NCBI GenBank assembly: GCA_021158125.1
Contig: JAGGVF010000012.1
Span: 10,879-74,878 of the forward strand
DNA length: 64,000 bases
Reading direction: 5' to 3'
Origin: Candidatus Bathyarchaeota archaeon
GTDB lineage: Archaea > Thermoproteota > Bathyarchaeia > Bathyarchaeales > WUQV01
Shown here: in pieces, positions 6,571-45,554 of the stretch
Layout of the letters: each line of letters opens with the position of its first letter
Position numbering within the stretch: position 1 is the stretch's first letter
Made by a program: the position numbers and the translations under genes
The notes under the pieces: model-generated
The model's input: only the letters and a program-made list of their open reading frames with translations
Told to the model about the DNA's origin: nothing
The model's database searches: none

Positions 6571-6572
6571 AA

Positions 6573-29571: not shown

Positions 29572-30685
29572 ACTGCCAGAGGAGTTATTATTGTCAGAGG
29601 TAAAGAAAACTTCATTCATCATTGTTCTAAGCATCCTTCTACTTGCATTTTACCTAAACTTTTTACCGCAAGCGTTATCCTATACTCAAGAGGAAGCATA
29701 TCAGGCTCTCACTACTGTGCATCAAACAATCGTAAACTGTTACGGGGCAACTGTAGCGGCTGAAAAGGCTGGAGCGAACATTACGGGATTAACTACAACT
29801 CTTAACGAGGCTGGAAAGCTATATTCAAAGGCCCTTCTAGCCAGGAAAAACGAAGACTACAATTTAACGGTGCAGTTGGTCAACGAATGTTTAGGAAAAC
29901 TTGACGGCTTCATCGAAAAAGCGAACACTTTAAGGATAAATGCCTTGGAGAAAGGTTATTGGGATTCCATCTACAATATTGTATGTTCCAGTGTTGGAGC
30001 AGTTGTAATAATCTGTATAGCGTTCATAATTTGGTCTTTATTGAAAAAGAGGCATTTAAGTGGAAGGCTTAAAGTAAACCCGGAAAATTACAAAGCCATA
30101 TTCATAACTGTAACTTTCGTTTCAGCCCTGCTTGTGGCTTCACCAGCATTAAGCCGAGTACTTGTCTACCCCCGAACCGAATTCTTCACGGAGCTTTGGA
30201 TTTTGGATTCAAATCATAAAGCCGAAAACTACCCATTTAACATTTCAAGCAATCAGGATTACAGCATTTATCTAGGCGTAGGAAACCATCTGGGATATTG
30301 CGCTTACTACATGGTTCAAGTAAAGTTTAGGAATGAAAGCCAACCAGCTCCAACCAGTTTGGGGCCTATTGAAAAACGAAGTCCAAGCAGCCTACAGCCG
30401 CTTTACAACTTTACACTTTTTGTAGCAGACGAAGACGTTTGGGAGACGCCGTTAACTTTCTCATTTCATTATTATGAAAACGCTTCGAGAGTCAAAGTGA
30501 ACAAAATAGTTTTAAACGGGCTGTCTCTAAGCCTAAACAATCAACTTGTTGCGTGGAACTCCTCAAGAAACGGATATTACGGATTTCTCTTCTTCGAGCT
30601 TTGGCTCTACAACTCAACTGTCGACAGTTTTGATTATCATGGACGTTACGTTGGGCTTTGGCTAAACATGACAGTTTCATCTTGA
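29531..30685 (+). CDS. Membrane/secreted helical domain joined to a DUF1616-like domain
   Basis: C-terminal half FFTELWILD...AENYP...YLGVGNHLG...FELW; start uncertain. Confidence 0.65.
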   Translation: MRGKFLSKCAKLLKLPEELLLSEVKKTSFIIVLSILLLAFYLNFLPQALSYTQEEAYQALTTVHQTIVNCYGATVAAEKAGANITGLTTTLNEAGKLYSKALLARKNEDYNLTVQLVNECLGKLDGFIEKANTLRINALEKGYWDSIYNIVCSSVGAVVIICIAFIIWSLLKKRHLSGRLKVNPENYKAIFITVTFVSALLVASPALSRVLVYPRTEFFTELWILDSNHKAENYPFNISSNQDYSIYLGVGNHLGYCAYYMVQVKFRNESQPAPTSLGPIEKRSPSSLQPLYNFTLFVADEDVWETPLTFSFHYYENASRVKVNKIVLNGLSLSLNNQLVAWNSSRNGYYGFLFFELWLYNSTVDSFDYHGRYVGLWLNMTVSS

Positions 30686-30706: not shown

Positions 30707-31690
30707 TTGAATTTGAAAATCGCTGTTGTCGGAATGGGAAAGATGGGCCTATTACATACCAGTATTTTAAACGTAATTCCAGAGGTTGAACTTACTGCAA
30801 TTTGCGATAAAAGCTTTCTCATTCGAAAGTTTCTGAAGAAAGTCTTTAAAGAAATAGTCGTCACAAACGATGTTGATGCACTTCACAAGTTTGATCTAGA
30901 CGCAGTTTACATAACGACCCCCATAGCTTCCCATTATCACATTGCGAAGACCATATATACAGAGAATATTGCCCCTAACCTTTTCATCGAGAAAACTCTC
31001 GCCTCAAACTTCAAAGAAGCAAGAGAACTCTGCGAATTAGCTCAAGACGCAGGCGGCGTGAACATGGTTGGCTACATGAGACGATTCGCCGTAACCTTCC
31101 AGAAAGCCAAGAACTTATTAGAAGAGAAGGCTATTGGCAAAATTCTATCTTTCAAAGCCTACGCGTATTCTTCAGACTTTTACGGAAAGGAAAAATGTTC
31201 TAAAGCCCACACTTCCAACGTTGGAGTTTTGAGGGATTTAGGCTGCCATGCAATAGACCTAGCGTTATGGTTCTTCGGAGAGCTCAAAGTGGAAAAAGCC
31301 AAAGTAGAATCTATGGTAAGCCGTAACGCTGAGGATTCCGCACATATCAAATTTGCAGGTTCTAACGGTGTGCTCGGTGAGCTTAAAGTTTCAAGATGTG
31401 TAGATAAATATCGCATGCCAGAAGTTGGATTTCTAATTGAAGGCTCCCAAGGCGTTATAGATGTGAACGATGACAAACTGGAACTAATTTTAAACAGCGG
31501 AAAAACTCGTGGATGGTTTAGACACGACTTAAACGACACTGTAGAATTTTGGCTTGGAGCACCAGAATATTTCCGAGAAGATAAGCATTTCGTAGAATCC
31601 GTGCTTCATAAAAGCCCAGCGGAACCGAACTTTCAGACAAGCGCAAAAGTTGACTATTTAATCGATGAAATTAAAGCAAAGGCGGAATAA
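30707..31690 (+). CDS. Gfo/Idh/MocA oxidoreductase
   Basis: VVGMGKMG, FIEKTLA, VGYMRRF, DLGCHAID. Confidence 0.85.
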   Translation: MNLKIAVVGMGKMGLLHTSILNVIPEVELTAICDKSFLIRKFLKKVFKEIVVTNDVDALHKFDLDAVYITTPIASHYHIAKTIYTENIAPNLFIEKTLASNFKEARELCELAQDAGGVNMVGYMRRFAVTFQKAKNLLEEKAIGKILSFKAYAYSSDFYGKEKCSKAHTSNVGVLRDLGCHAIDLALWFFGELKVEKAKVESMVSRNAEDSAHIKFAGSNGVLGELKVSRCVDKYRMPEVGFLIEGSQGVIDVNDDKLELILNSGKTRGWFRHDLNDTVEFWLGAPEYFREDKHFVESVLHKSPAEPNFQTSAKVDYLIDEIKAKAE

Positions 31691-31691
31691 A

Positions 31692-32594
31692 ATGAAAACT
31701 GAAGAGAAAGCCTTTCTCGTTGGAGACAACCCATTTCACGGTATAAGCCACCTCTCTCAGGAAAGAAGCAGAGCCAGAGGAGATACGCCTACTAACCCCG
31801 AGTATGCCGCCGAGCTAATATGGATTTCGCTTGAAAACGGTGCGAACGGATTCATGTTTTCGGTAAGCGAAAAAACGCTTTCAATTTTAACTCATCTACG
31901 AAGAAAACGAACAGCTAATCGCCTAAGTTTATACGCTATTGTGCCGTACGCTTACGAATACGTAAGATTAGCTGGCAAAGTTGGAGGAATCCCAGGTCTA
32001 GCCAAGAAAATTATCAAGCAAATAGTTTTCTCTGGAAATTTTAATGCAATGGCTTCAGGTCTGAAAGGTGTTTTGAAGTCGGATTTAAATTCGCTCGTAA
32101 AAACTTATTTGTCATACGAAATTTCGAGGATAAAATCTTCAGCTGGCAAACAAACGGAATTAGACAGCGTCATTCTCCACCAACTAATAACAGACATGTG
32201 TTTAGCATTTAATCTAGAATGGATTTTTAAGCTATACGTAGATTTTATGCTCAAAAACAGACTAAAGCCGGGATTCAACACCGGAAATTTTGCCTTACTC
32301 GCCAAGAAGTTTAAAAAATGGAAGATAAACCTAGAAGACATCATGATAGCCGCCCCATTTAACAAGATTGGTTTCCAGATGGTTCCTTCAAAAGAAAAAT
32401 GTGAAAAGGCATTAGCTGAAATGCCTAAACCGAACGTTCTAGCAATAAGCGTATTAGCTGCGGGATATCTAAAGCCAGAAGAAGCAATAGACTACATAGC
32501 TCGTCTACCAAACATAAAGGGAGTAGCTGTAGGAGTATCAAAAGAACGCCATGCACATGAAACTTTCAGATTGCTTAAAGAAAAGCTATGCTAG
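31692..32594 (+). CDS. Hypothetical protein, possible truncated TIM-barrel/aldo-keto-reductase-like
   Basis: LVGDNPFHGISH N-terminus, LAISVLAAGYL near C-terminus; ATG 31692 abuts upstream stop. Confidence 0.55.
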   Translation: MKTEEKAFLVGDNPFHGISHLSQERSRARGDTPTNPEYAAELIWISLENGANGFMFSVSEKTLSILTHLRRKRTANRLSLYAIVPYAYEYVRLAGKVGGIPGLAKKIIKQIVFSGNFNAMASGLKGVLKSDLNSLVKTYLSYEISRIKSSAGKQTELDSVILHQLITDMCLAFNLEWIFKLYVDFMLKNRLKPGFNTGNFALLAKKFKKWKINLEDIMIAAPFNKIGFQMVPSKEKCEKALAEMPKPNVLAISVLAAGYLKPEEAIDYIARLPNIKGVAVGVSKERHAHETFRLLKEKLC

Positions 32595-32623: not shown

Positions 32624-32696
32624 GCCGGGGTGACCGAGGATTAGGTGGCGGCTTGCAGAGCCGTTTACGTTGGTGAAAATCCAACCCCCGGCTCCA
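32624..32696 (+). tRNA. tRNA-Cys(GCA), atypical D and T loops, CCA encoded
   Basis: GCCGGGG/CCCCGGC acceptor, U discriminator, GCGGC-TTGCAGA-GCCGT anticodon arm, GTTGG-TGAAAAT-CCAAC T arm. Confidence 0.85.
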
Positions 32697-32709: not shown

Positions 32710-33822
32710 ATGAGTGATAGTATGGATAAGAGGCGTAAGATTGCTTGGCTTGAGGAAAAAATTAATGCCATGCATTCCTTTAGAGGTTCCCTCCTTAGCT
32801 ATGTCAGTTCTTCTAGAACCTTAAAATCCAACATGCTAAAATTGGATGCCAACGAAAACTATTTTGTGGATCCAAACTTTCTAAAGAATTTACTCCTAGA
32901 AGCATTAAAGGAAGTCGATTTAAGGCTTTATAATCCCGGTGTAACTGTTGAGTTAAAGGAGGCTTTAGCTAGGTACCTCGGCATACCTGCTGGATGCATT
33001 GGAGTTGGCGGTGGAAGCGAACATTTAATTGACTCTCTTATTCAGCATTTCTTGGAAAGTGGTGATGAAGCTGTTTCTATTGTGCCAAGCTTCTTCATGT
33101 ACGAAAAGCGCGTTCGATTGAAAGGAGCTAAGTTAGTCAGCGTCCCTCTAAAGGAAGATTTGTCTATTGATGTTGATGAAGTTCTTAGAAGTTGCTCCAA
33201 CAAAACCAAGCTTATTTTCATTTGTTCTCCCAATAATCCCACCGGAAATCAATTTAGCTGGGAGAGTATCGAGGCTTTAGCTGACAACTGTTCGGCAATT
33301 ATAGTAGTAGATGAAGCCTACATTGAGTTTGGAGATGGCTCTATCTGCCCGAAGGCAGTTGAAAAGGAGAACATTCTTGTGGTAAGAACTTTCTCTAAGG
33401 CTTTCGGTTCAGCCGGATTGCGTTTTGGTTATTTTGCTGCATGTGAGGATCTAGCTTCAGCACTTTCTGAAGTTATTCCCTATACCGTAAGTACGCTCGT
33501 GGGCTGTTTTGTTATTAAGTTGTTAGGTAAATTCGAGGTTGTAAGAAACTGGATAGATGAGATTAAAAGGGAGCGTAAAAGGCTAATAGAAAAGCTGCGT
33601 TCTATCAACGGAATCAAAGTTTTGGATTCTAAGGCAAATTTTGTTACCTTCAGACCTAATAGAGATGCCGACAGAATTTACAACGGACTTCTAGGCAAGG
33701 GGATAGCTATTAAGAATCTTGGCGCTTTGCCGGTTATTGGACATTGTTTGAGGGTAACGGTTGGCCTTCCGGAGATGAATTATATTTTTCTGAAGTATTT
33801 GCGTGAGATTTTAGTCGGCTAG
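32710..33822 (+). CDS. Class II PLP enzyme (HisC/CobD-like aminotransferase or decarboxylase)
   Basis: LDANEN, SPNNPTG, DEAY, RTFSKAFGSAGLRFGY. Confidence 0.85.
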   Translation: MSDSMDKRRKIAWLEEKINAMHSFRGSLLSYVSSSRTLKSNMLKLDANENYFVDPNFLKNLLLEALKEVDLRLYNPGVTVELKEALARYLGIPAGCIGVGGGSEHLIDSLIQHFLESGDEAVSIVPSFFMYEKRVRLKGAKLVSVPLKEDLSIDVDEVLRSCSNKTKLIFICSPNNPTGNQFSWESIEALADNCSAIIVVDEAYIEFGDGSICPKAVEKENILVVRTFSKAFGSAGLRFGYFAACEDLASALSEVIPYTVSTLVGCFVIKLLGKFEVVRNWIDEIKRERKRLIEKLRSINGIKVLDSKANFVTFRPNRDADRIYNGLLGKGIAIKNLGALPVIGHCLRVTVGLPEMNYIFLKYLREILVG

Positions 33823-33844
33823 GCTTTTTTGTGGTTGATGGTTT

Positions 33845-34681
33845 ATGGCTGATGTTGAGATTAAGCTGGCTAACATTAGGCATCATGATGTTGAGGCTGA
33901 GTTTTTTGAGAAGGCTCATCCTGAGGGTTCAAGCCTTTATGAGCGATCTAGGGTTTCGCGGAGCTTGGCATATATTCTTCAGCTGTCGAATGGTAGGGAG
34001 GTATGCGTTGATGTCGGCTGCGGAACGGGATTTGTTACAGCTTTTGAATTGCCTTTTTACAGGATGGTTGTAGCAACGGATATTTCCAGGCGTATGCTCG
34101 AAGCCGCCAAGAAAAGATTGGGAAGTTTTGGTTCTTTAAACCTTGTTTTGTGCGATGCTGAGTTCCTGCCCTTTAAAGACGGTGTTGCTGATTTAGTTTC
34201 GGTTTCCTCCGTTTTGCATCATTTGCCTAAGCCCTCTAGTTGTTTGAGGGAGGTTTCGCGGGTTTTGAAGAAGGGTGGTTTTGTCTATATTACTCGTGAG
34301 CCTAGTTTTCAGCGTTTTAGGCGTTTTTTCGACTTTTTCGATGGATTTGTTGTGCGGAAGTTTTTGAGGTTTATGAGCATTTTGCGGTTGCATCGAGAAG
34401 ATTTGTCGGTGAGCTTAGAGCCTCGTTTGGAAGGCTTGGATTATGGCAAGGTTGACGTTCATTATTCGAGAGGTTTTCACTTCGGTACTCTGTCCAATTT
34501 TCTTTCAAGCGAAGGTTTTGATGTTGCGTCTGCCTATTCATATCATTGGATTTATCCAGACTCTAATAGAGGCTGGCTTCAAACCCTTTTAACTAAGAGT
34601 AATTTTTTGATTGAAAAACTTCCGCTTGCCAATAGATTTGGGAGATATGTTTGCGTTATCGCAACCAAGGAGAGTCTTTAG
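33845..34681 (+). CDS. Class I SAM methyltransferase
   Basis: VDVGCGTG, DAEFLPF, SSVLHHL, LKKGG. Confidence 0.85.
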   Translation: MADVEIKLANIRHHDVEAEFFEKAHPEGSSLYERSRVSRSLAYILQLSNGREVCVDVGCGTGFVTAFELPFYRMVVATDISRRMLEAAKKRLGSFGSLNLVLCDAEFLPFKDGVADLVSVSSVLHHLPKPSSCLREVSRVLKKGGFVYITREPSFQRFRRFFDFFDGFVVRKFLRFMSILRLHREDLSVSLEPRLEGLDYGKVDVHYSRGFHFGTLSNFLSSEGFDVASAYSYHWIYPDSNRGWLQTLLTKSNFLIEKLPLANRFGRYVCVIATKESL

Positions 34682-35604
34682 ATACGAGGAAAAGGTTTAG
34701 ATGGCCAGTGAAACTTATATTAGCACGATTCTTTCTATCACAGTTTTCTTCAATACTTTTTTGCAGGTATTTGAAGCAGTTCGCGTATAAGCGTGGAAGA
34801 TCCGTGCAGACAGGTTACGATAAAATTTTTCAAAAATTTGAGAGTTCAGATGTTTGGAAAGAGCTTTGTTCTCAAGTTTTCGGGGAATATTTGGGACAAT
34901 ACAGCTTTACTGACACAAAGCAGATTGATTTTCTTGTAGACAAGCTTAATATTACATCAAAAAGCCGAGTTTTAGATTTAGCTTGTGGACTTGGCGGCTT
35001 AAGCTGTTATCTTGCTAGAATCTCTGGATGCCAGATCGTAGGTTTAGATATTTCTTCAGTGGCCGTTAAATTTGCAAATCAGCGTGCAATGCTTGAGGGT
35101 CTTAAGGGTCGTGCAGTTTTTAGGGTTGGAATACTGCCTGAACTACCTTTTCCAAGTGAATATTTTGATGCCATAGTGAGTATTGATAGCATTTATGGTA
35201 TTCCTGATAAAGGCCAGTTATTTAGAGAATGCTTTAGAGTTTTAAAGCCGGGTGGGCGTATTGGTTTTTACACACTTTATAAGCGTGGAGATTTCTCATT
35301 AATTGCCGCTCTTAATTCCCGTGCACTTTATTGGTTTCCCTTGAAATCTTACAATGCTCTACTTTGGCAGACTGGTTTTAGAAGAATATTAAAGATTGAT
35401 ATGACTGCTGAATTTGTACAGCTTGCAAGGATATGGATTAGGGCGATAAGTCTTAAGAAGCGTTTGCTTGAGAAAGAGTTGGGCAAAGATGTAACGAATG
35501 GATTATTAAAAGGAGATATCTTGGTGGCTTTGAAGTTAGCCGAAGCGGGACTTATTGGGAGAGCTTTCTTTTATGGGGAAAAACCAGTAACGGGTTTGTG
35601 GTGA
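34651..35604 (+). CDS. Class I SAM methyltransferase (amine N-methyltransferase-like)
   Basis: YLGQYSF, VLDLACGLGG, RVLKPGGRIGF; start uncertain. Confidence 0.8.
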   Translation: MRYRNQGESLDTRKRFRWPVKLILARFFLSQFSSILFCRYLKQFAYKRGRSVQTGYDKIFQKFESSDVWKELCSQVFGEYLGQYSFTDTKQIDFLVDKLNITSKSRVLDLACGLGGLSCYLARISGCQIVGLDISSVAVKFANQRAMLEGLKGRAVFRVGILPELPFPSEYFDAIVSIDSIYGIPDKGQLFRECFRVLKPGGRIGFYTLYKRGDFSLIAALNSRALYWFPLKSYNALLWQTGFRRILKIDMTAEFVQLARIWIRAISLKKRLLEKELGKDVTNGLLKGDILVALKLAEAGLIGRAFFYGEKPVTGLW

Positions 35605-35608
35605 AAAT

Positions 35609-36973
35609 TTGAATTTAAGGGATTATTTAGAAGTTGGGAATAATGGCCATTTGATTCTTCGCGGAGTTGATTTGGTGGAGCTTACGGATAAATACGGGAC
35701 TCCTCTTTTTGTTTTTGATGAGGTTACGCTTGTTGAGAATTTTGAGAGGTTTAGGAAGGCTTTTGAAAGCCTTTATCCGAAGGTGATTGTTTGTTATTCT
35801 GTTAAGACAAATAATAATTTGGCTATCTGCAGCATTCTTTGCGAGAAAGGGGCGTATGCGGAAGTTTCTTCTGAGCTGGACTTACATATAGCCTTAAAGG
35901 CTGGATTTCCAGGAGAAAGAATAATTTACGATGGACCTTTTAAGTCTGAAGAAGCGTTAAGGATGGCTGTTAATGAGAATGTTTTGCTTATAAATGTTGA
36001 GTCTTTTGCCGAGATGAAGAGGCTGAATAGAGTTGCTGGAGAGTTAAATGTAAAGCAAGCTATTGGTTTAAGGGTTAACTCCTTTAAAGACCCCGGCCTC
36101 TCTAAGTATTTTAGTTTAAATAAACTCGTTAATGCGGCCTATGGCAATCTTGAAGGTAAGTTTGGTTTTTGCTTAGATGAGGCATATGCAGCTTTTGAAA
36201 AGGCTTTGAAATTTGAAAATTTGAGTGTTGAAGGGATCATGACTCATCCTTATCGGCAGGCCGCTAAAGTGCTGTTGCCCTTGATGCATAAACTTCGCAA
36301 GGGTTTAGGAATTGAATTTAAGTATCTTAATGTTGGAGGAGGCTTTTATTCAGGAGACGTCCGTTTTGTTGGTGGTAAAGAGCTTATTTTAGATTTCCTA
36401 AGGCGAAAAATTAAGCTTAAATCGAAATTGAGCACGGAAGTTGATGTTCCAAGCATTGAGTCTGTCGCGAAGATGCTCGTGAATGATATTAAACAGGGCT
36501 TGAAAGAGTTACCAGAGCCGATTTTGATTGTTGAGCCTGGGCGTTTTATTGCTTCTTCAGCTGGTCTTTTACTTGTGCGGGTTGACCACATTAAGAATGC
36601 CGGTGGATGTAAGTGGGCTTTTGTGGATGGAGGAACAAATCTTCTTCCAAGGTTTGATGCTGTTGAACTAAGGAAAGTTATAATTGCAAACAAGGCTTCT
36701 GATGACCCTTGTGAGGAGTATTACATCTCTGGACCGTTGCTTTACTCTGATGATTTCATAACCTTAAAAGCTTCACTTCCTGAACTACGCGAGGGCGATG
36801 TTCTTACAATTTTATGCTGTGGAGCCTACACGCTGTCTAGGTCTAATCAGTTTCTGTATCCGCGTCCAGCCGCAGTTTTGGTAAGATCAAAAGGTGAGGT
36901 AATGGTTATTCGGGAAAGGGAAACCTTTGAGGATGTTTTATGTAAGGACCGCAATATTCGAATTAAGCAATAA
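35609..36973 (+). CDS. Fold-type III PLP decarboxylase (LysA/Orn/Arg family), divergent
   Basis: GTPLFV, YSVKTN, GKFG, NVGGG, EPGRF, DGGTN, GAYT. Confidence 0.85.
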   Translation: MNLRDYLEVGNNGHLILRGVDLVELTDKYGTPLFVFDEVTLVENFERFRKAFESLYPKVIVCYSVKTNNNLAICSILCEKGAYAEVSSELDLHIALKAGFPGERIIYDGPFKSEEALRMAVNENVLLINVESFAEMKRLNRVAGELNVKQAIGLRVNSFKDPGLSKYFSLNKLVNAAYGNLEGKFGFCLDEAYAAFEKALKFENLSVEGIMTHPYRQAAKVLLPLMHKLRKGLGIEFKYLNVGGGFYSGDVRFVGGKELILDFLRRKIKLKSKLSTEVDVPSIESVAKMLVNDIKQGLKELPEPILIVEPGRFIASSAGLLLVRVDHIKNAGGCKWAFVDGGTNLLPRFDAVELRKVIIANKASDDPCEEYYISGPLLYSDDFITLKASLPELREGDVLTILCCGAYTLSRSNQFLYPRPAAVLVRSKGEVMVIRERETFEDVLCKDRNIRIKQ

Positions 36974-36989
36974 CTGGTTGATGTTCTAA

Positions 36990-38228
36990 TTGATCAAGGG
37001 TGGAGTTTTAGTTGCTGAGGGGGAAAATCCGGTTGCAATTCCTATTATAAGATCTCTGGCTGGAAAAGGCGTTAACGTAACCGCCATGGCAGGTACAATG
37101 CGCCCTTTCGCTCGGCTCTCAAAGTATTGCAGTAATCTAATTTTGGTTCCTTCGATGACCCGTGAAAAGGAATATGCTGCTACCGTGGAGAAAATTGTTA
37201 AGAAGATTAAGTTTGATGCGCTTTTTCCAATTTTTGAGTGGTCTTTAATCCCCATTTCCAAGAATAGGGACAGGATAGGCCGTTATGTCAGGATTCCAAT
37301 AGCGAGTCACGAAGCCATTCTTAGATGCTATGATAAACTTTCAACTTTGAAACTGGCTATGGAAAAAGATGTTCCAGTTCCTAAAACCTACCTTGTGCAT
37401 AATTTTTCGGAGCTTAGGAAAGTTGCAGAGGAGATAACTTATCCTGCCGTGGTTAAACCTCGTTGGTCCATGGTTTGGCAGGGTGATAAGGCATATTATA
37501 GAAGGGGTGGTTTTGTTAACTCTCCGGAAGAGCTTATTGCCACATACATCAGTATACATCGTTATTTCCCTTTTCCAATGATCCAAGAGTATGTCCCTGG
37601 AATCAACTTTTCAGTAGCCGCCCTATACAATAACGGTAGGCCCAGAGCTTTCTGTTGCATAAAGGTTTATAGGGCTTGGCCTCCGACTGGTGGTAACAGC
37701 TGTTATCGGGAAAGCGTTGAGTTGGATAATGGAATGAGGGCTTTTTCTGAGCGATTGCTTGGAGCTTTAGATTGGCATGGAATTGCTGAGGTTGAGTTTA
37801 GACTAGATGCGAGGGATAATGTTCCCAAACTGATGGAGATTAACCCCCGCTTTTGGGGCTCTTTGTGTGTAGCCATTAAGGCCGGAGTTGATTTTCCTTA
37901 TATGCTTTATCGCATTGCTGTAGACGGCGATATAAACGGAGTATTCAGTTATAAAATTGGCGTTAAAGGAAGGTACTTAGAACAAGAGCTCTTGTATATT
38001 ATTAGCATGTTATTTCAAGGTAAAACTTTTAATCCTAGCGTTAAAGGTGGAAGGCTGAAGGCTTTGATGAATTGGCTCAGGTTTTATGAACATGGACTTT
38101 TTTACGACTTGTTTGAATGGGATGATCCCGCTCCTTTCCTTTACAATTTTTTTTCTTGTCCTTTTGGGCTGATGAGACTCTTTCGGGGTAAAAACTATGC
38201 TTGGGGCGAGCCGGGCGTTCGTCATTAA
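36990..38228 (+). CDS. ATP-grasp carboxylate-amine ligase
   Basis: YPAVVKP, MIQEYVPG, WHGIAEVEFR, LMEINPRFWGS, GVDFP. Confidence 0.88.
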   Translation: MIKGGVLVAEGENPVAIPIIRSLAGKGVNVTAMAGTMRPFARLSKYCSNLILVPSMTREKEYAATVEKIVKKIKFDALFPIFEWSLIPISKNRDRIGRYVRIPIASHEAILRCYDKLSTLKLAMEKDVPVPKTYLVHNFSELRKVAEEITYPAVVKPRWSMVWQGDKAYYRRGGFVNSPEELIATYISIHRYFPFPMIQEYVPGINFSVAALYNNGRPRAFCCIKVYRAWPPTGGNSCYRESVELDNGMRAFSERLLGALDWHGIAEVEFRLDARDNVPKLMEINPRFWGSLCVAIKAGVDFPYMLYRIAVDGDINGVFSYKIGVKGRYLEQELLYIISMLFQGKTFNPSVKGGRLKALMNWLRFYEHGLFYDLFEWDDPAPFLYNFFSCPFGLMRLFRGKNYAWGEPGVRH

Positions 38229-38243
38229 CCTTGAAGGCGGAAA

Positions 38244-39314
38244 GTGAGAGGTATGAGCGGAGATATTACCATAGATTTTAGTCCCTCAAAGCAAGTGTGG
38301 GATGCTTTTTTGTCCGAATTCGGCGTGGGGAATCTTCAGCAATCTTATGAGTATGGTGAGGTAGCCAAGATGATTAATTCTCACACTAGGGTTGTGCGGC
38401 TCTTAGCCTTAGAGGGGGACACGCCAGTAGGCTTAGCACAGGCCAGATACAATAGAAGGTTTGGTTTTGGGGGCCGTTTGGAGATTGGTGGAGTTTATGG
38501 TTATGGACCCGTTGTTGGCGATAGCTTTGACAAAGATAGGGTTTTAATTGAATTAATTACTTCTATGGAGAGATTAGCCGTTAAGGATAGGGTTTGCGAA
38601 TCCTTCGTTTTTACGTTAGAGAGGATTGATGTTTTAGAAAGGCTTGGCTACGCTTTTGAAAAGACTTTTAATGTTTATAGGGTTGGGCTTCAGAATGGGA
38701 TTGAAGACTTATGGAGGCGGATTGCCCATAACAAAAGAAGGAATATTAAAAAGGCACAGTCGCATGGTGTTGATGTAATTTGTAGCACGAAGCTTGGGGA
38801 TTTAGATGCCTTCTATGAAATGCATGCGCTTTCTGGTAAAAGGATTGGGTTCGTCCCCCATCCACATGGATACTTTGCCTCCTTTCTGAAAGTCTTCGGT
38901 GTATCCGGTAGGGTCAGGGTTTTTCTGGCGTTTTTTGGCGGTAAACCTGTTGCCGGCGTTTTTGTCGTCGTTCATGGCGACACTGCGTACGCTTTGGGCG
39001 CTGGCTCCCGTAAAGAAGCTTGGTGCGTTAGACCGAACGATATAGTTCACTGGAAGGCAATGGAGTGGGCGTGTAACGAGGGGCTTTCCTACTATCATAT
39101 GGGTTTTGTTTCTGAACCTCCGCCCAGCCAAGGCTCGGAGGGTTGGGGTCTGTGGAGATGGAAGAGGGAGTGGAATGGAACCCTCCAGAACGTTCATGTT
39201 TACCATAAGGTTTTGATGCCTAGGTTTAAGAAGTTCCTGCTAAACCCCTACGAGAAAGTCTACAATATAGCCAGTAAGCTTCGCTTCTATTTGAGTCGAG
39301 ATGACTTGTTGTGA
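38244..39314 (+). CDS. FemAB/FemX-like GNAT-fold transferase
   Basis: LQQSYEYG, KRRNIKKA, F..FYEM, PNDIVHWKAMEWA, GLWRWKREW. Confidence 0.75.
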   Translation: MRGMSGDITIDFSPSKQVWDAFLSEFGVGNLQQSYEYGEVAKMINSHTRVVRLLALEGDTPVGLAQARYNRRFGFGGRLEIGGVYGYGPVVGDSFDKDRVLIELITSMERLAVKDRVCESFVFTLERIDVLERLGYAFEKTFNVYRVGLQNGIEDLWRRIAHNKRRNIKKAQSHGVDVICSTKLGDLDAFYEMHALSGKRIGFVPHPHGYFASFLKVFGVSGRVRVFLAFFGGKPVAGVFVVVHGDTAYALGAGSRKEAWCVRPNDIVHWKAMEWACNEGLSYYHMGFVSEPPPSQGSEGWGLWRWKREWNGTLQNVHVYHKVLMPRFKKFLLNPYEKVYNIASKLRFYLSRDDLL

Positions 39315-40300
39315 AAAAGGTTAATTTAGGAATTGTAGGGCTAGGTTTTCAAGGAAAAATTCATCTTCGCAATTGCCTTCGTATAGGAAATGCTAAAGTT
39401 TTAGGTGTTGCAGACATTTCTGATAAAGCCTTAAATTACGCTAGGAAATTTGGTGTAAAGAATGTTTACAGAAATTACGAGGATTTACTAAAAGATAAGG
39501 ATTTGGACGCTGTTATTTTAAGTTTACCGAATTTTCTTCATATGGAAAGTGTGGTTAGGGCTGCTGAGGAGGGAAAGGACATCTTTCTTGAAAAGCCCCT
39601 TGCAAGGAATTTGGAAGAAGGGGAGAAAATTGTGTCTGCTGTTGAGAAAGCGGGCGTCAGGTTGATGATGGGTTTTGATTTGAGGTTTCACCCCGTTTTG
39701 AGGGAATTGCGTAATAAAATAGATGAGGGATACTTTGGTGAGGTTCAGGTTGCAGAAGCCACTAATGTCAGCGGTGGCCCCTTCTCTCTGCGAAGCGATA
39801 GATTGGGACCGGTTCCAGTGTCTTCTTGGTGGTTTGAAGAGGAGTTGGTAGGTGGCGGCGCCTTGTTGGATCTTGGCTCCCACATGATTGACTTATTAAC
39901 ATGGTATTTCGGTGAGGTTGATCATGTTGAATGTTTTTTGAAGTACATGTTTAACTTGGATGTTGAAGACGCTGCCACATGTCTTTTAAAGTTTAGGAAG
40001 GGCCCCTTAGCAACCGTTAAGGTGGGATGGTTTTCTAAGGACTTTATACAGTCAATTCAATTGTGCGGAACTGCGAGGAATTTATATGTGCCCATATCCG
40101 GCTCTAAAGCTTTAGGTAAGATTTGGAAGGACTTAAAAAGGAAGGTTGGTTTGTACAATTCTGATCCCTACTATTTAGAGATTAAATACTTTGTAAACTG
40201 CCTACAGAGAGATGAAAACCCTGTCCCTTCTGAAAAGGAAGGCTTAAAATCCTTACGGCTGATTTTAAGTGCCTATGAAAGCTATCGTAAAAACTCGTGA
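39311..40300 (+). CDS. Gfo/Idh/MocA oxidoreductase
   Basis: IVGLGFQG, FLEKPLA, GFDLRF, GGGALLDLGSHMID. Confidence 0.88.
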   Translation: MKKVNLGIVGLGFQGKIHLRNCLRIGNAKVLGVADISDKALNYARKFGVKNVYRNYEDLLKDKDLDAVILSLPNFLHMESVVRAAEEGKDIFLEKPLARNLEEGEKIVSAVEKAGVRLMMGFDLRFHPVLRELRNKIDEGYFGEVQVAEATNVSGGPFSLRSDRLGPVPVSSWWFEEELVGGGALLDLGSHMIDLLTWYFGEVDHVECFLKYMFNLDVEDAATCLLKFRKGPLATVKVGWFSKDFIQSIQLCGTARNLYVPISGSKALGKIWKDLKRKVGLYNSDPYYLEIKYFVNCLQRDENPVPSEKEGLKSLRLILSAYESYRKNS

Positions 40301-40315
40301 AAACATGATGCGAGA

Positions 40316-41206
40316 TTGGGTATTTTGAGTAAAGTAAGCTTTGTTAAAGCCTCTAATGGCGATCGTGAAGCCGTAAAGGAGGCTATGTTGAAATCTTTGA
40401 GATTGATAAATTTTGAGTTTAATAGAAATGTCGAGAAAATAGTCATTAAACCTAACATGTGCTATTACTTTCATCCCTCGACGGGCGAAGTGACAGATCC
40501 ACGGTTTGTCAGCGTTTTGATTGATGTTTTAAGGGGAGGATTCGGAAAAGATGTGGAAATATTTGTTGTAGAGTCGGACGCGTCTGCAATGAAGTGCAAA
40601 TACGTCTTTCACATGCTTGGGTATGATGTGATGGCTAAAGAAAAGGATGTTAGGCTCGTTAATTTAAGCGAAGAAAAATATAGAATTGTAAATGTTCAAC
40701 TAAATAAAGCGGATTTTAATTTTCATGTTCCAGAGCTCTTTTACGATTGTGATTTGGTGATTAACGTTCCTAAGTTGAAGTATATGACGGATGTGAAGAT
40801 CACTTGTGCCTTAAAAAACATGTTTGGATGTAACGCCTACGCCAAGAAATTTATTTATCATCATGCTTTAAACGAGGCAATTGTTGCGATTAACAAGCTG
40901 ATTAAAACGGATTTGGTGGTCGTTGATGGTTTAGTTGTTAGTGGAAGATACACCAAAAAATTAAATTTGGTGATGTCAAGCATGGATCCGGTCGCCTTAG
41001 ACGCAGCCGCATCTAAAATATTGGGATTCAACCCAAAATCTGTGAAGCAAATAGTTTTGGCCTCTCAGGTGGGGTTAGGTTCCATAGACTTTACTCCTGT
41101 TGGAGATTATTATTACGCGATTAGAGAGTTTCCAAGAAAGAGATGGAAAGATAATGTGCGGGATGCAATTGCAGCTGTGTATTTACGTGTTTTTCGTGAA
41201 ACCTAG
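40316..41206 (+). CDS. DUF362-family protein
   Basis: IVIKPN, VTDP, VINVPKLK, CALKNMFG, DPVALDA. Confidence 0.8.
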   Translation: MGILSKVSFVKASNGDREAVKEAMLKSLRLINFEFNRNVEKIVIKPNMCYYFHPSTGEVTDPRFVSVLIDVLRGGFGKDVEIFVVESDASAMKCKYVFHMLGYDVMAKEKDVRLVNLSEEKYRIVNVQLNKADFNFHVPELFYDCDLVINVPKLKYMTDVKITCALKNMFGCNAYAKKFIYHHALNEAIVAINKLIKTDLVVVDGLVVSGRYTKKLNLVMSSMDPVALDAAASKILGFNPKSVKQIVLASQVGLGSIDFTPVGDYYYAIREFPRKRWKDNVRDAIAAVYLRVFRET

Positions 41207-41221
41207 CCTTTTAAGAGGATA

Positions 41222-42388
41222 ATGAGCTTGAGGGTGAACCAGGTTAACGATTTTGATGCTTTAAGAGAAGAATGGAACACTTTTTTAAAAAAGAACATTT
41301 TAGGGGACAATGTGTTCCTTACATGGGAATGGCTGTCTACTTGGTGGAAGTATTTTGGTGAGCGAAGAAAACTTCTTCTCTTGACCGTTGAAGATGAAAA
41401 TAAAATTGTCGCAATTGCCCCGCTTATGCTTTCAAAGTATAAATTACCGTTTTTGGGAAGCGTCAAAAAAATAGAGTTCTTGGGGGTTAGGCACTCAGAT
41501 TATAACAATTTTATTATTTCCGAGAAGGAAAGAGAATGTATGAGACTGATTACGGACTATCTGATTGATGTTATTGCTGATTGGGATTGGATTGAGCTTA
41601 AAGAAATCCCAGAAAACGCTGAAAACTTTGATGTTTTGGAAAAATTATTCTCAGACGTTTCACCAGATTTAAAAATTAGAAAAAGAGTATGTAACGTATG
41701 CCCTTATATCCCTCTGCCAGACTCATTCGATCTTTTAATGAAAAGATTGAAGAAGAATATGAGGCAAAACCTGAATAAGTATTTGAGGAGAATTAAGAAG
41801 CATCATAAAGTAGAATTAAAGCGATACGACGAGGGTGGTTTTAGCGTTAAAGAGGGAATGAAAGTTTTTTTTGAGCTTCATGAAAAACGGTGGGCTTTAA
41901 AGGGTTTGCCCGGGGCCTTCAAAAGTGAAAAGGCCTTTCTGAACTTTCATATGGATATTGCTCAACTTTTCGCAGATAAAGGTTGGTTAGGTCTTTATTT
42001 TTTAATGGCAAATGATGAACCTATAGCGGCTCAGTACAACTTTGAATACTATAGAAAAATGTATTATTATCTTGGCGGGTTTAATCCGCAATTTTCTAAC
42101 TATTCGGTCGGCAACTTGCTAACGATGTTTGTTTTAGATAGATGTATCCGGAGGGGATTCAAGGAGTATGATATGATGAGAGGTAATGAGCAGTATAAGC
42201 TGTTTTGGACAAATACTTGCAGAAGAAATTTTGAAGTAAGGCTGGTGCCAAACGGATTGACAAGAAAATTCTATGATTGGTTGACATGGAGTAGTACCGT
42301 TAGTAGTTTAGCGGGAAAACTGAAACTCTCATTAAAAAGAGAGATTATGTCTAATAATAGTTCTTCGGGGCATTTTGATGAGCAATAA
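41222..42388 (+). CDS. GNAT (CelD/BcsL-like, Acetyltransf_6) transferase
   Basis: FLTWEWLSTWW, IAPLM, SDYN, SVGNLL, YDMMRGNEQYK. Confidence 0.85.
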   Translation: MSLRVNQVNDFDALREEWNTFLKKNILGDNVFLTWEWLSTWWKYFGERRKLLLLTVEDENKIVAIAPLMLSKYKLPFLGSVKKIEFLGVRHSDYNNFIISEKERECMRLITDYLIDVIADWDWIELKEIPENAENFDVLEKLFSDVSPDLKIRKRVCNVCPYIPLPDSFDLLMKRLKKNMRQNLNKYLRRIKKHHKVELKRYDEGGFSVKEGMKVFFELHEKRWALKGLPGAFKSEKAFLNFHMDIAQLFADKGWLGLYFLMANDEPIAAQYNFEYYRKMYYYLGGFNPQFSNYSVGNLLTMFVLDRCIRRGFKEYDMMRGNEQYKLFWTNTCRRNFEVRLVPNGLTRKFYDWLTWSSTVSSLAGKLKLSLKREIMSNNSSSGHFDEQ

Positions 42389-43094
42389 AAAGAGGATTAT
42401 AGTCTTCGCGCCCCATCCAGACGATGAAACATTTGGCTGCGGGGGCACAATAGCCAAGAAGATAAGCGAGGGGCATGAAGTTTATGTAGTTATTATGACA
42501 GATGGAAGATACGCGTTTCTCAATGTTTTAGGCATAGAAAAGGATCCGACTCCTGAAGAGCTTAAAGAGATCAGAATGCAAGAGGTTAAAAAGGCAACGG
42601 AAATTCTCGGAGTCCCTGAAGGTAATTTGATTTTTCTGAATTTTATCGACGGAACCCTAGAAGATAATAAGGAAGCCGCTGAAGAAAAGGTAATTAATAT
42701 TTTACGCGAAAAACGTCCTGATGAAGTTTATTTACCATATAGGGGGGATGGCCACCCAGATCACCGCGCCGCGTACAAAATTGTAAAAAATGCGATTAGA
42801 AAACTGCAAATTTCTCCCGTCTGCTATGAATACTCGATTACGCATAGGTTTGCCCGGCTTGGGCGCTTAATTGATGCCTTTCTTGATTTTGTTTTTGGGA
42901 TCAAAAAGGTATATGTCGATATTTCAGAATTTCTGGACGTTAAAAAGCTTGCGATTATGAAATTTAAATCCGAGTTGACGGTTGTTTCGGCTAGGCAGCG
43001 TAAACCTATCGTAGCCAGTGTTGAAAAGTTTGAAAATAACGGAGAAATGTTTCGCGTAGAGAAAAAATGCTACAAAAAATCTGATTTAACTTAG
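42375..43094 (+). CDS. PIG-L family deacetylase
   Basis: APHPDDETFGCGG, TDG, HPDH. Confidence 0.9.
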   Translation: MMSNKKRIIVFAPHPDDETFGCGGTIAKKISEGHEVYVVIMTDGRYAFLNVLGIEKDPTPEELKEIRMQEVKKATEILGVPEGNLIFLNFIDGTLEDNKEAAEEKVINILREKRPDEVYLPYRGDGHPDHRAAYKIVKNAIRKLQISPVCYEYSITHRFARLGRLIDAFLDFVFGIKKVYVDISEFLDVKKLAIMKFKSELTVVSARQRKPIVASVEKFENNGEMFRVEKKCYKKSDLT

Positions 43095-43109: not shown

Positions 43110-44222
43110 ATGTTAGAGTTTATATTTTTATGTTTTCTCTCCATGTTCTTAGGAACTTACCTAGCTTACTTTTTCTATATTAGAAAACATGTTAGAAGGA
43201 CTTGGGATATTAAGGTAGATGAAAGATTCGAGCCTGAAGTATCAATTTTAATTCCTGTTCATAATGAAGAAGCAAATATTGAGTCGAAGCTAGAAAATAT
43301 AAAGAAGGTTTCGTATCCGAGAGAGAAAATGGAAATAATAGTCGTGGACGACGCTTCAAACGACAGAACCATCGAAAAAATTGAGAATTTTATGCAGAAG
43401 CACTCGAAGTTAAATATTAGACTAGTGAGGCAGAATCCGCGAGCTGGAAAATCGGCGGCGTTGAACAAAGCATTACGCGTATCTACTAAACCTATTGTGA
43501 TAGTTTCTGATGCTGACACGAAATGGCCTCCAGATATTCTTCGAAAGGCACTGCCCTTTTTGGCTGATCCAAAAGTTGGCGCCGTTACTGGAAGAGGCGT
43601 GAATACGAACGTCAAAACGTCTTGGGTGACTAAAGCTGAAGAATCGTACCTTCAACTTGCCAATTTTATTAGGCTTGGTGAATCAAAAATCCATTCAACT
43701 ATAAGATTTGAAGGCGGATTCTGCGCTTATAAGCGCGATGCTTTTGATGCCTTTGATTGCGAAACAGGCTCTGATGATTCCGGAACTGCGTTAAAAGTTG
43801 TTTCTAGAGGCTACCGAAGCATAATGGCTCCAGAAATAGTGTTTTATACAAGCTTTCCGCCAAGCTTCCTTGCAAAATTCAAAATTAAGCTTCGACGAGC
43901 TAATCAACTAATAGGTTTGTGGATTAAATGTCTAAAGCTCCTCTTAAAAAGGCGACTCTCTCTGCCTAAAAGAATAGCGATACCAGAAATAACTTTATTC
44001 ATCTTTGATCCTATAATCTTACTCATATCAATTCTTAGCGGTGTAGCCTTAATAGTACTGAATCCGCTTTCTCCACTTAGCCTAGCGATTATCTTCTCTG
44101 TATTGGGATTGACGATTTTCGCGAGGCATGTTTTCGTTGAACTTATCATTGACAACATAATTCTGATAAGTGCTTTAATGACGTACATATTCAGGCGGCG
44201 ATATGTCGCCTGGGGAAAATGA
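43110..44222 (+). CDS. GT2 glycosyltransferase with TM segments
   Basis: LIPVHNEE, VVDDAS, GKSAALN, SDAD. Confidence 0.88.
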   Translation: MLEFIFLCFLSMFLGTYLAYFFYIRKHVRRTWDIKVDERFEPEVSILIPVHNEEANIESKLENIKKVSYPREKMEIIVVDDASNDRTIEKIENFMQKHSKLNIRLVRQNPRAGKSAALNKALRVSTKPIVIVSDADTKWPPDILRKALPFLADPKVGAVTGRGVNTNVKTSWVTKAEESYLQLANFIRLGESKIHSTIRFEGGFCAYKRDAFDAFDCETGSDDSGTALKVVSRGYRSIMAPEIVFYTSFPPSFLAKFKIKLRRANQLIGLWIKCLKLLLKRRLSLPKRIAIPEITLFIFDPIILLISILSGVALIVLNPLSPLSLAIIFSVLGLTIFARHVFVELIIDNIILISALMTYIFRRRYVAWGK

Positions 44223-44278: not shown

Positions 44279-44596
44279 TTGAAGGTTAAGGATGAAGTTT
44301 TCGAGTTTTTAGTTCCTAAAGTAATTAAAAATGCTGATTTACGCGTGAATGTTCCGAAAGTGAAGTATATGACTTTCACAAAAATTTCGTGTGCTTTAAA
44401 AAATATTTTTGGCTGTAATCCTTACCCGAAAAAGTTCAAGTATCATCCTAAACTTGACGAGGTTATTGTCGCATTAAACAAGATTATGCCGTTCGATTTA
44501 TATTTTCTTGACGGTTTGATTGTTTGCGGTTCAAAAACTCTAAAGTTGGGACTTATAATGGCAAGTCAAGATCCGGTTGCAATGGATGCGGGTTGA
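44279..44596 (+). pseudogene. Internal fragment of a second DUF362 gene
   Basis: Aligns only to the middle of 40316-41206 (NVPKVKYM..ISCALKNIFGC...DPVAMDA); in-frame TAA just upstream, early stop. Confidence 0.7.
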
Positions 44597-45491
44597 TGTG
44601 ACTAAGCCTGTTGTGACAATTGGTATTTGCGTTAGGAATTGTGCTGGTACTTTACGTGACGCTATTGAAAGTGTTATGTCACAAGACTACCCGCATGAAC
44701 TCATAGAAGTAATCTTTGTTGATGACGGAAGCGAGGACGATACCCTCTCTATAATTGAAGAATATCGTGGAAAAATGGATATGAAAGTGAATATCTTTCA
44801 TCACAGATGGAAGGGACTTGGTTATTCTAGAAATGTTGTAGTATGGAATGCTTCTGGAAAATATATTATTTGGGTCGATGGTGATATGATCTTACCAAAG
44901 AGTCACGTTAGAAAACAAGTAGAATTCATGGAAAAAAATGTGAATGTAGGAATTGCTAAGGCGAAGCATGGTTTTTTCCCAAGAAATAAATTAGTCGCTG
45001 TATTGGAGAATTTACCTTACATGGTTTTGGATTATGAAAGTAATAAGGTTAAGCTAGGAATGCTTGGAACAGGAGGGTCAATCTACCGTGTTGAAGCTAT
45101 AAGAGAAGTGGGGGGTTTTGATGAAAGTATAAAGGGAGCTGGTGAAGATCTGGATGCAGCAAGACGAATATTAATGAAAGGTTGGCAATTTGGGCGCTCA
45201 AACGCAATGTTTTTTGAACGACGAAGAGAGACGTGGAAAGCTCTCTGGACTGAATATTTTTGGTGGGGATACAGCATGCGTCAAGTACTAAAGGAGAATA
45301 AAGGTCTTGTTATTCTTTATAAAATGACACCTTTATTTGGTTTTCTTGCAGGAATTTTATATTCCCTCAAGGCCTATAAGTTAACTCGTTGGAAATCAGC
45401 TTTTTTGCTTCCTCTTCAGTTTATTTTTAAGCTTACTGCTTGGTGGGTAGGCTATATAAAAAGTCGCGCTAAATTTGGAGAGTTAAAGTAG
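44577..45491 (+). CDS. GT2 glycosyltransferase
   Basis: VDDGSED, IWVDGD, GFDESIKGAGED; true start may be 44586 or 44598. Confidence 0.88.
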   Translation: MQWMRVDVTKPVVTIGICVRNCAGTLRDAIESVMSQDYPHELIEVIFVDDGSEDDTLSIIEEYRGKMDMKVNIFHHRWKGLGYSRNVVVWNASGKYIIWVDGDMILPKSHVRKQVEFMEKNVNVGIAKAKHGFFPRNKLVAVLENLPYMVLDYESNKVKLGMLGTGGSIYRVEAIREVGGFDESIKGAGEDLDAARRILMKGWQFGRSNAMFFERRRETWKALWTEYFWWGYSMRQVLKENKGLVILYKMTPLFGFLAGILYSLKAYKLTRWKSAFLLPLQFIFKLTAWWVGYIKSRAKFGELK

Positions 45492-45554
45492 CAAGTGCTT
45501 CAGCGTCTGATAGTGAGTTAAAATAGTCTGCTACTTTCCCGTGGAAGTTCTATC

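Follow-up and report, generated by a model that had tools for sequence, protein, structure and literature searches.

What might a tightly packed run of ten genes make when it lies inside the glycan locus of an archaeon? The run in question occupies positions 32710-43094 of a window of 64,000 nucleotides (nt), the whole stretch of DNA analysed here, from a Candidatus Bathyarchaeota archaeon (assembly GCA_021158125.1, contig JAGGVF010000012.1; C11:10879-74878 in our numbering of a 1.37-Mb genome, G000, that is 98% complete). Its ten open reading frames (ORFs), g1 to g10, lie on the same strand and, in the ORF listing, either overlap or stand no more than 22 nt apart. An earlier note on this DNA had read it as a pathway that makes an N-methylated or zwitterionic amine or short peptide and attaches it to a polysaccharide, and the tight packing and the families that it named are confirmed by Pfam and NCBIfam: ten co-directional genes, followed by a gene for a family 2 glycosyltransferase (GT2; g11). 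The answer that we favour, to which we give about an even chance of being right, is that these genes form an archaeal module for glycan tailoring, conserved and patchy in its distribution, that moves an aminoacyl group, probably cysteine, from tRNA onto a de-N-acetylated N-acetylhexosamine (HexNAc). Family calls below use the curated cut-offs of Pfam and NCBIfam, tRNAs were found with ARAGORN, and folds were compared as AlphaFold2 (AF2) models with Foldseek.

Fem-type transferases and the conservation of the module

Two of the ten proteins suggest the type of chemistry. On its sequence, g6 is a member of the Fem family: it scores 52.6 bits against PF02388 (cut-off 24), and the profile of its own family matches Staphylococcus aureus FmhB (6snr) over both lobes (E=5e-20). 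Its GLWRWKREW aligns with GLWAFKKVW of FmhB, which places a Trp-Lys pair at the Phe-Lys position of Fem enzymes, and WRWK occurs in 97 of 117 g6 homologues; Lys305 of FemX is a catalytic residue, and all Fem transferases conserve its Phe304 (PMC9723616). The second protein, g9, appears to be Fem-type by predicted fold only. It has no sequence match among solved structures and falls under PF13480 and not PF02388, while the best Foldseek matches of its AF2 model (predicted local distance difference test, pLDDT, 75) are FemX (E=2e-12), FemA, FmhB, MprF and the enzymes Sba18/Sbb17, which depend on aminoacyl-tRNA and were crystallised with streptothrisamine, and its residues Y325 and K326 are invariant. 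That both GNAT-type genes look Fem-type points to tRNA-dependent aminoacyl transfer and not to generic ligation. Aminoacylation of an amino sugar in this way is documented for streptothrisamine, which is modified by Fem-like enzymes that depend on aminoacyl-tRNA (PMC12945691).

An amine for such a transfer could be supplied by g10, a putative PIG-L/LmbE de-N-acetylase in whose translation the motifs HPDDE and HPDH are intact and in which no signal peptide or membrane segment is evident by eye. Its best NCBIfam model is BshB1 (97.9 bits, below the cut-off of 182.5), and MshB gives 45.7 against 224. The earlier note's combination of amide-forming enzymes with a deacetylase that frees sugar amines is thus borne out as far as sequence goes, with several such families and a deacetylase able in principle to do so. 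The membrane GT2 that follows, g11, can be aligned over almost its whole length with the models PgaC_IcaA (93 bits) and NodC (74 bits), though neither score reaches the cut-off.

Because the earlier note had named an absence of co-conservation as grounds for abandoning its reading, we looked for the genes elsewhere. The module recurs in about 16 independent loci spread over three lineages: Bathyarchaeia, Helarchaeota and Hodarchaeales. The recurring set consists of the decarboxylase (g4), Fem-type g6, the PIG-L enzyme, one or two Gfo-DUF362 pairs (the g7-g8 pair is kept in most loci, often twice) and a g11-type GT2, an orthologue of which is found in 14 of the 14 module loci that reach far enough to include it. 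Individual members are missing in places: the Hodarchaeales locus L081 lacks PIG-L and g9, L086 lacks an orthologue of g6, and the Helarchaeota locus L011 lacks g9 and DUF362. The ATP-grasp gene g5 has close orthologues in L008, L010, L012, L013, L082 and L086 and distant relatives (22-36%) in G132, L011 and L081; among the module loci compared, no ATP-grasp gene was found in L015, L016, L024, L084 or L085. In L015 its position is taken by an AsnB-like amidotransferase (5596-7473), for which the best model is the XrtA/PEP-CTERM amidotransferase, and this substitution points to carboxylate activation.

Methylation, which the earlier note had made central as N-methylation, is accessory to the module. 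Methyltransferases of the g2 type, which use S-adenosylmethionine (SAM), occur in 9 of 16 loci (orthologues in L008, L012, G132, L081-L084 and L086) and those of the g3 type in three (orthologues limited to L008 and L083), and the families do not distinguish N- from O- or S-methylation. A 2.1-kb metagenome contig (P0057) encodes a 556-aa fusion of a SAM methyltransferase with a Fem-type domain 49% identical to g6, a hint that methylation and Fem transfer share one pathway.

The tRNA-Cys paralogue and the two PLP enzymes

A candidate donor lies directly upstream of the run, in a gene absent from the earlier note. A tRNA-Cys(GCA) gene ends 13 nt 5' of the start codon of g1, a gap so short that co-transcription is probable. 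The genome has one other tRNA-Cys gene, the canonical copy on contig C4. The T-loop of the module tRNA is TGAAAAT in place of TTCAAAT, and its D-loop is without the canonical GG; the tRNA keeps the anticodon GCA and a T before the encoded CCA, which we take to be the identity elements for cysteinyl-tRNA synthetase (CysRS). The genome has a single CysRS (contig C12, 17234-18625), and, as phosphoseryl-tRNA synthetase (SepRS) is absent from it, we rejected charging with phosphoserine.

The alterations recur. Canonical tRNA-Cys genes stand elsewhere in G000, G004, G005 and G006. We aligned eight module copies with four canonical copies: in the D-loop all four canonical copies have GG and all eight module copies have A at the first of those two positions, and the stems of the module copies differ by compensatory changes. 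The T-loop carries TGA in four of the eight (the window, L010, L012a and L015) and also in a ninth copy, from L084, and TTA in L082. An extra gene, a single synthetase and a TGx T-loop are the sequence-level features of a non-proteogenic isoacceptor; in staphylococci, TTC is likewise replaced by TGC or TGT in the genes for non-proteogenic tRNA-Gly (PMC7826273). A strict version of the atypical T-loop pattern, run over the 401 Bathyarchaeia genomes that form our census (an even sample), returned genuine tRNAs from just two genomes, G000 and G407, the pattern being too narrow for a census. Two further ARAGORN calls that we considered as spare tRNAs, a tRNA-Gly(ACC) of 90 nt and a tRNA-Phe(AAA) of 99 nt, are probably misread intron-containing genes. 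We also rejected the tRNA as an integration site at the border of an island: partial repeats of a tRNA are absent from the window, the gene stands within the locus, downstream of the DUF1616 and GfoA genes, its upstream neighbours differ from one locus to the next, and the canonical tRNA-Cys copies are found elsewhere.

Across the module loci the tRNA keeps company with the HisC-like gene. That gene is present in 11 of the roughly 16 loci, and a tRNA-Cys lies directly upstream of it, 13-35 nt away, in eight of these; L016 has only the 5' half of the tRNA, and L013 and L086 have none. Three loci without a HisC-like gene have no tRNA. L084, which has a remnant of the HisC-like gene, keeps an atypical tRNA-Cys beside an 82-aa ORF (6290-6633) that joins N- and C-terminal HisC-like pieces and looks like an internal-deletion pseudogene. 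Two tRNA-Cys-like genes occur in L012 (479-552 and 5094-5165), one preceding the HisC-like gene and a second, more degenerate one (L012b) preceding the decarboxylase, and the module-type gene of L083 (7852-7925) has an anticodon loop of 6 nt (CCGCAG). A second, independent hint of cysteine comes from Helarchaeota: in L011, a 569-aa protein (5197-6906) weakly but significantly matches the N-terminal Rossmann-like domain of BshC (E=2e-5), a cysteine-adding enzyme, and its gene adjoins two PIG-L genes and a Fem-type gene.

Are g1 and g4, the two pyridoxal phosphate (PLP) enzymes, simply the histidine and lysine enzymes of this cell? The earlier note had allowed that they might be its sole housekeeping HisC and LysA, and sole they are: in a genome that is 98% complete, g1 is the only match above the hisC cut-off, which it passes marginally (TIGR01141, 286.4 bits against 276.55), and g4 is the only lysA-like gene, below its cut-off (TIGR01048, 270.1 bits against 297.9). 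The housekeeping part does not hold. The genome lacks hisD and dapB, by searches that were positive in 14 and 11 control genomes, respectively. Among the 401 Bathyarchaeia genomes, g4-type enzymes (at least 56% identity and at least 526 bits) occur in four, G000, G407, G132 and G270, and the next best match beyond these drops to 38% identity and 213 bits, a bimodal distribution; the same four genomes have g1-type enzymes at 55-65% identity, compared with at most 45% for ordinary Bathyarchaeial HisC, and G270 holds both the module type and an ordinary HisC. These separate lineages, the missing hisD and dapB and the co-conservation of both enzymes with the module make it scarcely credible that g1 and g4 are an ordinary HisC and LysA that merely adjoin a glycan cluster, and we reject that explanation; g1 and g4 are module-specific lineages outside housekeeping histidine and lysine metabolism.

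The likely pocket of g4 tells the same way. Its nearest solved structures are diaminopimelate (DAP) decarboxylases, with BtrK, FslC and DokD as further matches, and two of these relatives are named for conjugated substrates (glutamyl-acyl carrier protein for BtrK, N-citrylornithine for FslC). GPLLY is invariant in nine of nine aligned module decarboxylases, at the position where the best-matching solved DAP decarboxylase, 2p3e, has GPICE, a comparison that involves this one aligned structure (GPICETGD), and the module enzymes carry HPY where 2p3e has HIGS. The 120 database homologues (at least 51% identity) include about 100 with GPLL[YF], one with GPLCY and none with GPxCE, the Cys-Glu of which belongs to GP(I/L)CE(S/T)GD, presumably a general substrate-pocket motif of DAP decarboxylases. 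In equivalog score, DAP pathway (dapB) and GPxCE motif, all three points examined, g4 departs from LysA, and by these sequence features it appears related to DAP decarboxylase but not a LysA. For g1, the score is marginally that of HisC, and the pathway (hisD) and orthology are not. When g1 was compared with HisC structures for its phosphate-site residues, two C-terminal stretches, ANF..R and LRVTVG, proved to be conserved in the aligned structures. More than 100 database proteins belong to the g4 subfamily, many of them labelled 'diaminopimelate decarboxylase', and for these and the linked 'histidinol-phosphate aminotransferases' other functions are probable; such labels would distort amino-acid pathway reconstructions for the genomes concerned.

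A possible pathway, its rivals and its relatives

The pathway that we favour would combine two submodules. In submodule B (ATP-grasp, Fem-type g6, Gfo/DUF362, Fem-fold g9, PIG-L and the PgaC/NodC-like GT2), g11 would make a chain or a lipid-linked precursor that contains HexNAc, an N-acetyl group would be taken off in the cytoplasm by the PIG-L enzyme g10, and one or both Fem-fold transferases would then use an aminoacyl group borne by tRNA to acylate the amine thus exposed, or another amine built from it. The donor would most likely be Cys-tRNA, that is, the module tRNA-Cys paralogue charged by the single CysRS, and the altered corner of D-loop and T-loop should keep this tRNA from translation, as in the staphylococcal non-proteogenic tRNA-Gly. 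Submodule A (the tRNA-Cys, the HisC-like PLP enzyme, the optional SAM methyltransferases and the 'GPLLY' decarboxylase) may make or remodel an amine derived from an amino acid, possibly while it is tethered (compare BtrK and FslC), and the ATP-grasp enzyme, or the AsnB-like enzyme in one variant, would form a further amide on a carboxylate. Since the tailoring enzymes look cytoplasmic and several would need ATP, PLP, SAM or charged tRNA, the modification would precede export, as it does with lipid II and FemX.

Several observations weigh against this pathway. Its donor, acceptor, order of steps and product are ones we infer, and every functionally defined NCBIfam match is below cut-off except the marginal hisC. 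The fold of g9 also matches, with weaker scores, acetyl-CoA-dependent tandem GNATs. Of the 14 module loci with an upstream region to examine, 5 lack the module tRNA; its distribution follows that of the HisC-like gene and not that of the Fem genes, and three of nine module tRNAs (L024, G132 and L083) keep the canonical TTC T-loop. In L083, a unit of tRNA, HisC-like gene, methyltransferase, decarboxylase and methyltransferase stands alone: nothing of the Fem, PIG-L or GT2 families is encoded within 10 kb of it. The pathway leaves the Gfo/DUF362 pairs and a 309-aa protein encoded upstream without a role. The acceptor is a further difficulty: UGD, whose uronic acids had been put forward in the earlier note as plausible acceptors, is present in the window, but in ten other loci no copy lies within 10 kb of the module, so that the comparison gives this idea no support and we set aside a uronic-acid acceptor as argued from synteny.

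Some of these observations would be explained if the tRNA-like gene were no donor at all, and instead a duplicate in decay, retained for use as a promoter or as a processing signal for ribonuclease (RNase) P or RNase Z, with the Fem-fold enzymes using ordinary cellular aminoacyl-tRNAs or acyl-CoA. Its place only 13 nt before g1, its attachment to the HisC-like gene, the five module loci that lack it, and the damaged copies (the 6-nt anticodon loop of L083, the 5' half of L016, the degenerate L012b) all fit such a view. Decay does not easily account for a GCA anticodon and a T before CCA that are kept in every full copy, even the one with a shortened loop, nor for compensatory stem changes in the eight aligned copies; the D-loop change shared by all eight looks selected and not random, and L084 retains its tRNA despite the decay of the HisC-like gene there. 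We consider this explanation, with both its parts, distinctly improbable. The same tRNA invites a bolder extension of the pathway, in which the elbow-altered tRNA-Cys would be a dedicated carrier off the ribosome on which a non-proteinogenic residue is built. The HisC-like enzyme would remodel Cys-tRNA, for example by beta-substitution to a lanthionine-like thioether, the 'GPLLY' enzyme would decarboxylate the free amino-acid end to an amine resembling thialysine, methyl groups would be added by the SAM methyltransferases, and the Fem-type enzymes would move the finished cationic residue onto the de-N-acetylated sugar. This would fit a tRNA that tracks the HisC-like gene, a lone L083 unit whose 6-nt anticodon loop should not decode, and a decarboxylase without the Cys-Glu of the aligned DAP decarboxylase, and it is nevertheless a long shot.

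The other rival concerns the product: it might be a soluble small molecule instead of a decorated polymer, either a low-molecular-weight thiol of the mycothiol or bacillithiol type (Cys-glucosamine) or an aminoglycoside-like pseudo-oligosaccharide with an aminoacyl side chain, comparable to butirosin or streptothricin BD-12. BtrJ and BtrK pair an ATP-grasp enzyme with a decarboxylase of this kind, and BtrK is among the solved matches of g4. BshB1 is the best named model for the PIG-L gene, the implied donor is cysteine, a weakly BshC-like protein is encoded beside two PIG-L genes in Helarchaeota, the Gfo/Idh/MocA genes weakly match an inositol dehydrogenase model, and the biosynthesis of BD-12 includes the aminoacylation of an amino sugar by a Fem-like enzyme (PMC12945691). 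Against these stand the constant setting of the module among several GT2s, including a synthase-type membrane GT2, the DUF1616, DUF2206, GH5 or GHL10 genes close by, the absence from the window of any GT4 of the BshA/MshA type and of a BshC/MshC gene, and thiol-pathway models that all score below cut-off. Occurrence in about 1% of the sampled Bathyarchaeia is also unlike a core redox buffer. Taken together, the two forms of small molecule are possible though unlikely, and we prefer glycan tailoring by aminoacyl transfer.

Of the systems to which this tailoring module can be likened, that of staphylococci offers a parallel to its proposed use of tRNA. As with FmhB, FemA and FemB and their tRNA-Gly, there is a Fem-family enzyme (g6) with an aromatic-Lys pair, and an extra isoacceptor with a TGx T-loop and a changed D-loop beside a canonical copy and a single synthetase; extra tRNAs used preferentially in peptidoglycan synthesis have up to now been found in S. 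aureus and S. epidermidis only (PMC7826273). Here, in contrast, the host is an archaeon without murein, the tRNA is tRNA-Cys and is encoded within the operon, an amine on a glycan is presumed to be the acceptor where staphylococci have lipid II, the use of the tRNA is predicted, and the module adds PLP enzymes, PIG-L and Gfo/DUF362 pairs.

Other systems share parts of the module's logic or content, and the module stays below all their curated thresholds. In mycothiol and bacillithiol synthesis, deacetylation by MshB or BshB is followed by the addition of cysteine by MshC or BshC. The module likewise has a PIG-L/LmbE de-N-acetylase and an implied cysteine on the freed sugar amine, with a further GNAT-type enzyme as in mycothiol synthesis (compare MshD), but the window has no MshC/BshC ligase or GT4, the pathway models fall below cut-off, the cysteine donor would be tRNA-bound, and the module, which is rare among relatives, lies in a surface-glycan locus with multiple GT2s. 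The NodC/NodB/NodA logic of the Nod-factor core is similar too: a synthase-type GT2, one residue de-N-acetylated and then re-N-acylated with a different acyl group. The likeness is one of logic only, as the deacetylase is of the PIG-L and not the NodB type and the acyl donor would be aminoacyl-tRNA and not an acylated carrier protein.

The exopolysaccharide gene set associated with XrtA/PEP-CTERM shows the same combination of genes in a polysaccharide locus: a PLP enzyme like DAP decarboxylase (TIGR03099), a protein like FemAB (TIGR03019), an amidotransferase like AsnB (TIGR03108) and a deacetylase that acts on polysaccharide (TIGR03006). These models are among the best named for several module proteins. 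The host here is archaeal, and all scores are below the family cut-offs: 125.6 against 478 for TIGR03099, 58.6 against 260 for TIGR03019 and, in L015, 290 against 817 for TIGR03108 and 261 bits against 276 for TIGR03006, this last from an XrtA-type polysaccharide deacetylase with DUF3473 (16962-17810). A literature search yielded nothing useful on exosortase-linked FemAB and decarboxylase genes, and to our knowledge the accessory gene set is itself uncharacterised. Another route to a decorated polysaccharide uses Cj1436 and Cj1437 of Campylobacter jejuni, which are related to the HisC family. In the HS:2 capsule glucuronamide system to which they belong (Cj1435-Cj1438 and Cj1441), PLP enzymes produce a small amine, UGD is in the locus, and an ATP-dependent amidoligase joins amine to sugar carboxylate after polymerisation (PMC11800397). 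That system has no Fem enzymes, PIG-L or tRNA, whereas here UGD is not co-conserved and no HAD phosphatase was seen. For the transfer step itself, Orf11, Sba18 and Sbb17 of the BD-12 pathway (PDB 9wqw-9wqy) offer a precedent, as Fem-fold proteins that move an aminoacyl group from tRNA to an amino sugar and are among the best fold matches of g9. They belong to bacterial secondary metabolism and use Gly-tRNA, with no dedicated tRNA in the review of these enzymes (PMC12945691); sequence identity is about 12%.

The general tailoring idea of the earlier note was right, in that these genes form a dedicated module; methylation at its core and uronic-acid acceptors found no support, and the tRNA-dependent mechanism and the spare tRNA-Cys are new. 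If true, the proposal would widen the principle of a spare tRNA to cover archaea, cysteine and the decoration of glycans, and would offer a way to test ideas on the surface chemistry of Bathyarchaeia and of some Asgard archaea, most of them known only from metagenome-assembled genomes. In the literature that we searched, no paper linked Bathyarchaeota with FemAB and nothing useful was found on the Bathyarchaeia envelope, and a 2026 review of aminoacyl-tRNA-dependent natural-product enzymes never uses the word 'archaea' (PMC12945691).

The remaining genes of the locus

Features of the locus, with coordinates in the window (ORFs and tRNA gene)
Feature	Coordinates	Strand	Basis
HTH_45 winged-helix regulator	29266..29571	+	PF14947, 82 bits
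DUF1616 membrane protein	29531..30685	+	PF07760
Second Gfo/Idh/MocA oxidoreductase (GfoA)	30707..31690	+	Pfam
309-aa protein, partner of GfoA	31665..32594	+	Orthologues at module loci
tRNA-Cys(GCA) paralogue, altered D- and T-loops	32624..32696	+	ARAGORN
g1, HisC-family PLP enzyme, module-specific paralogue	32710..33822	+	Aminotran_1_2, TIGR01141
g2, class I SAM methyltransferase, accessory	33845..34681	+	Methyltransf_11
g3, class I SAM methyltransferase, accessory	34651..35604	+	Methyltransf_11/25/31
g4, fold-III PLP decarboxylase, 'GPLLY' subfamily	35609..36973	+	Orn/DAP/Arg decarboxylase, TIGR01048
g5, putative ATP-grasp amide ligase, variable component	36990..38228	+	ATPgrasp_Ter, ATP-grasp_3
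g6, Fem-family aminoacyl-tRNA transferase homologue	38244..39314	+	FemAB (PF02388) + Acetyltransf_6
g7, Gfo/Idh/MocA oxidoreductase, paired with DUF362	39311..40300	+	Pfam
g8, DUF362, LarA-like fold (predicted)	40316..41206	+	PF04015
g9, second Fem-fold (tandem GNAT) transferase (predicted)	41222..42388	+	Acetyltransf_6 (PF13480)
g10, PIG-L/LmbE-type de-N-acetylase (putative)	42375..43094	+	PF02585, 119.6 bits
g11, membrane GT2, synthase type	43110..44222	+	GT2 Pfam models
Cut-down DUF362 paralogue	44279..44596	+	58% identity to g8 residues 134-231
Two more GT2 glycosyltransferases	44577..46466	+	Pfam
GH5 glycoside hydrolase within locus	46485..47840	-	PF00150

The flanks of the module hold, by Pfam, genes for DUF1616, a second Gfo/Idh/MocA protein, further GT2s, GH5, DUF2206, a nucleotidyltransferase, UGD, RmlB and RmlD, so the setting inside a glycan locus given by the earlier note is correct. 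Several neighbours recur with the module. Orthologues of the two GT2s 3' of it are found in L010, L012, L013, L016, L024, L084 and L085, and HTH_45 genes lie upstream also in L008 and L082-L086. A DUF1616 gene is directly upstream of the tRNA or HisC-like gene in L010, L015, G132 (L079), L082 and L083; the GH5 gene has a 50% identical orthologue in L015, and L086 has a cellulase-family gene.

The oxidoreductases and their partners give fewer clues. For g7, weak matches to UDP-GlcNAc 3-dehydrogenase (141 bits) and IolG (138 bits) were found, and GfoA weakly matches the models for UDP-GlcNAc 3-dehydrogenase and inositol 2-dehydrogenase. The AF2 model of g8 (pLDDT 85.5) has only LarA-superfamily proteins among its top 18 Foldseek matches (TM-scores 0.42-0.50), and DUF362 shares a Pfam clan with DUF2088, the N-terminal domain of LarA (PMC11770544). 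LarC (TIGR00299) is absent from the genome, by a search positive in six control genomes, which makes a nickel-pincer cofactor unlikely for g8 and led us to drop that candidate function. Intact second Gfo-DUF362 pairs occupy the position matching 44279..44596 in L012 and L085, and L008 has one upstream of its g11 orthologue; the 105-aa ORF at this position in the window is apparently, from its sequence, the remnant of such a pair.

The 309-aa protein has no match in Pfam, NCBIfam or PDB, and hhalign rejected it as a divergent DUF362. It has many invariant residues, including GDNPF..ISHLSQE, and its orthologues in module loci are 54-78% identical and always near a Gfo/Idh/MocA gene; it is paired with GfoA in L010, L012, L013, L024 and L084-L086, and L015 has both genes apart. 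Further upstream, about 6-10 kb from the module, three aminoacyl-tRNA synthetase genes (22452-26981) encode a class I enzyme of the Trp/Tyr type and the alpha and beta subunits of phenylalanyl-tRNA synthetase (PheRS), and their closeness to the module is probably a coincidence.

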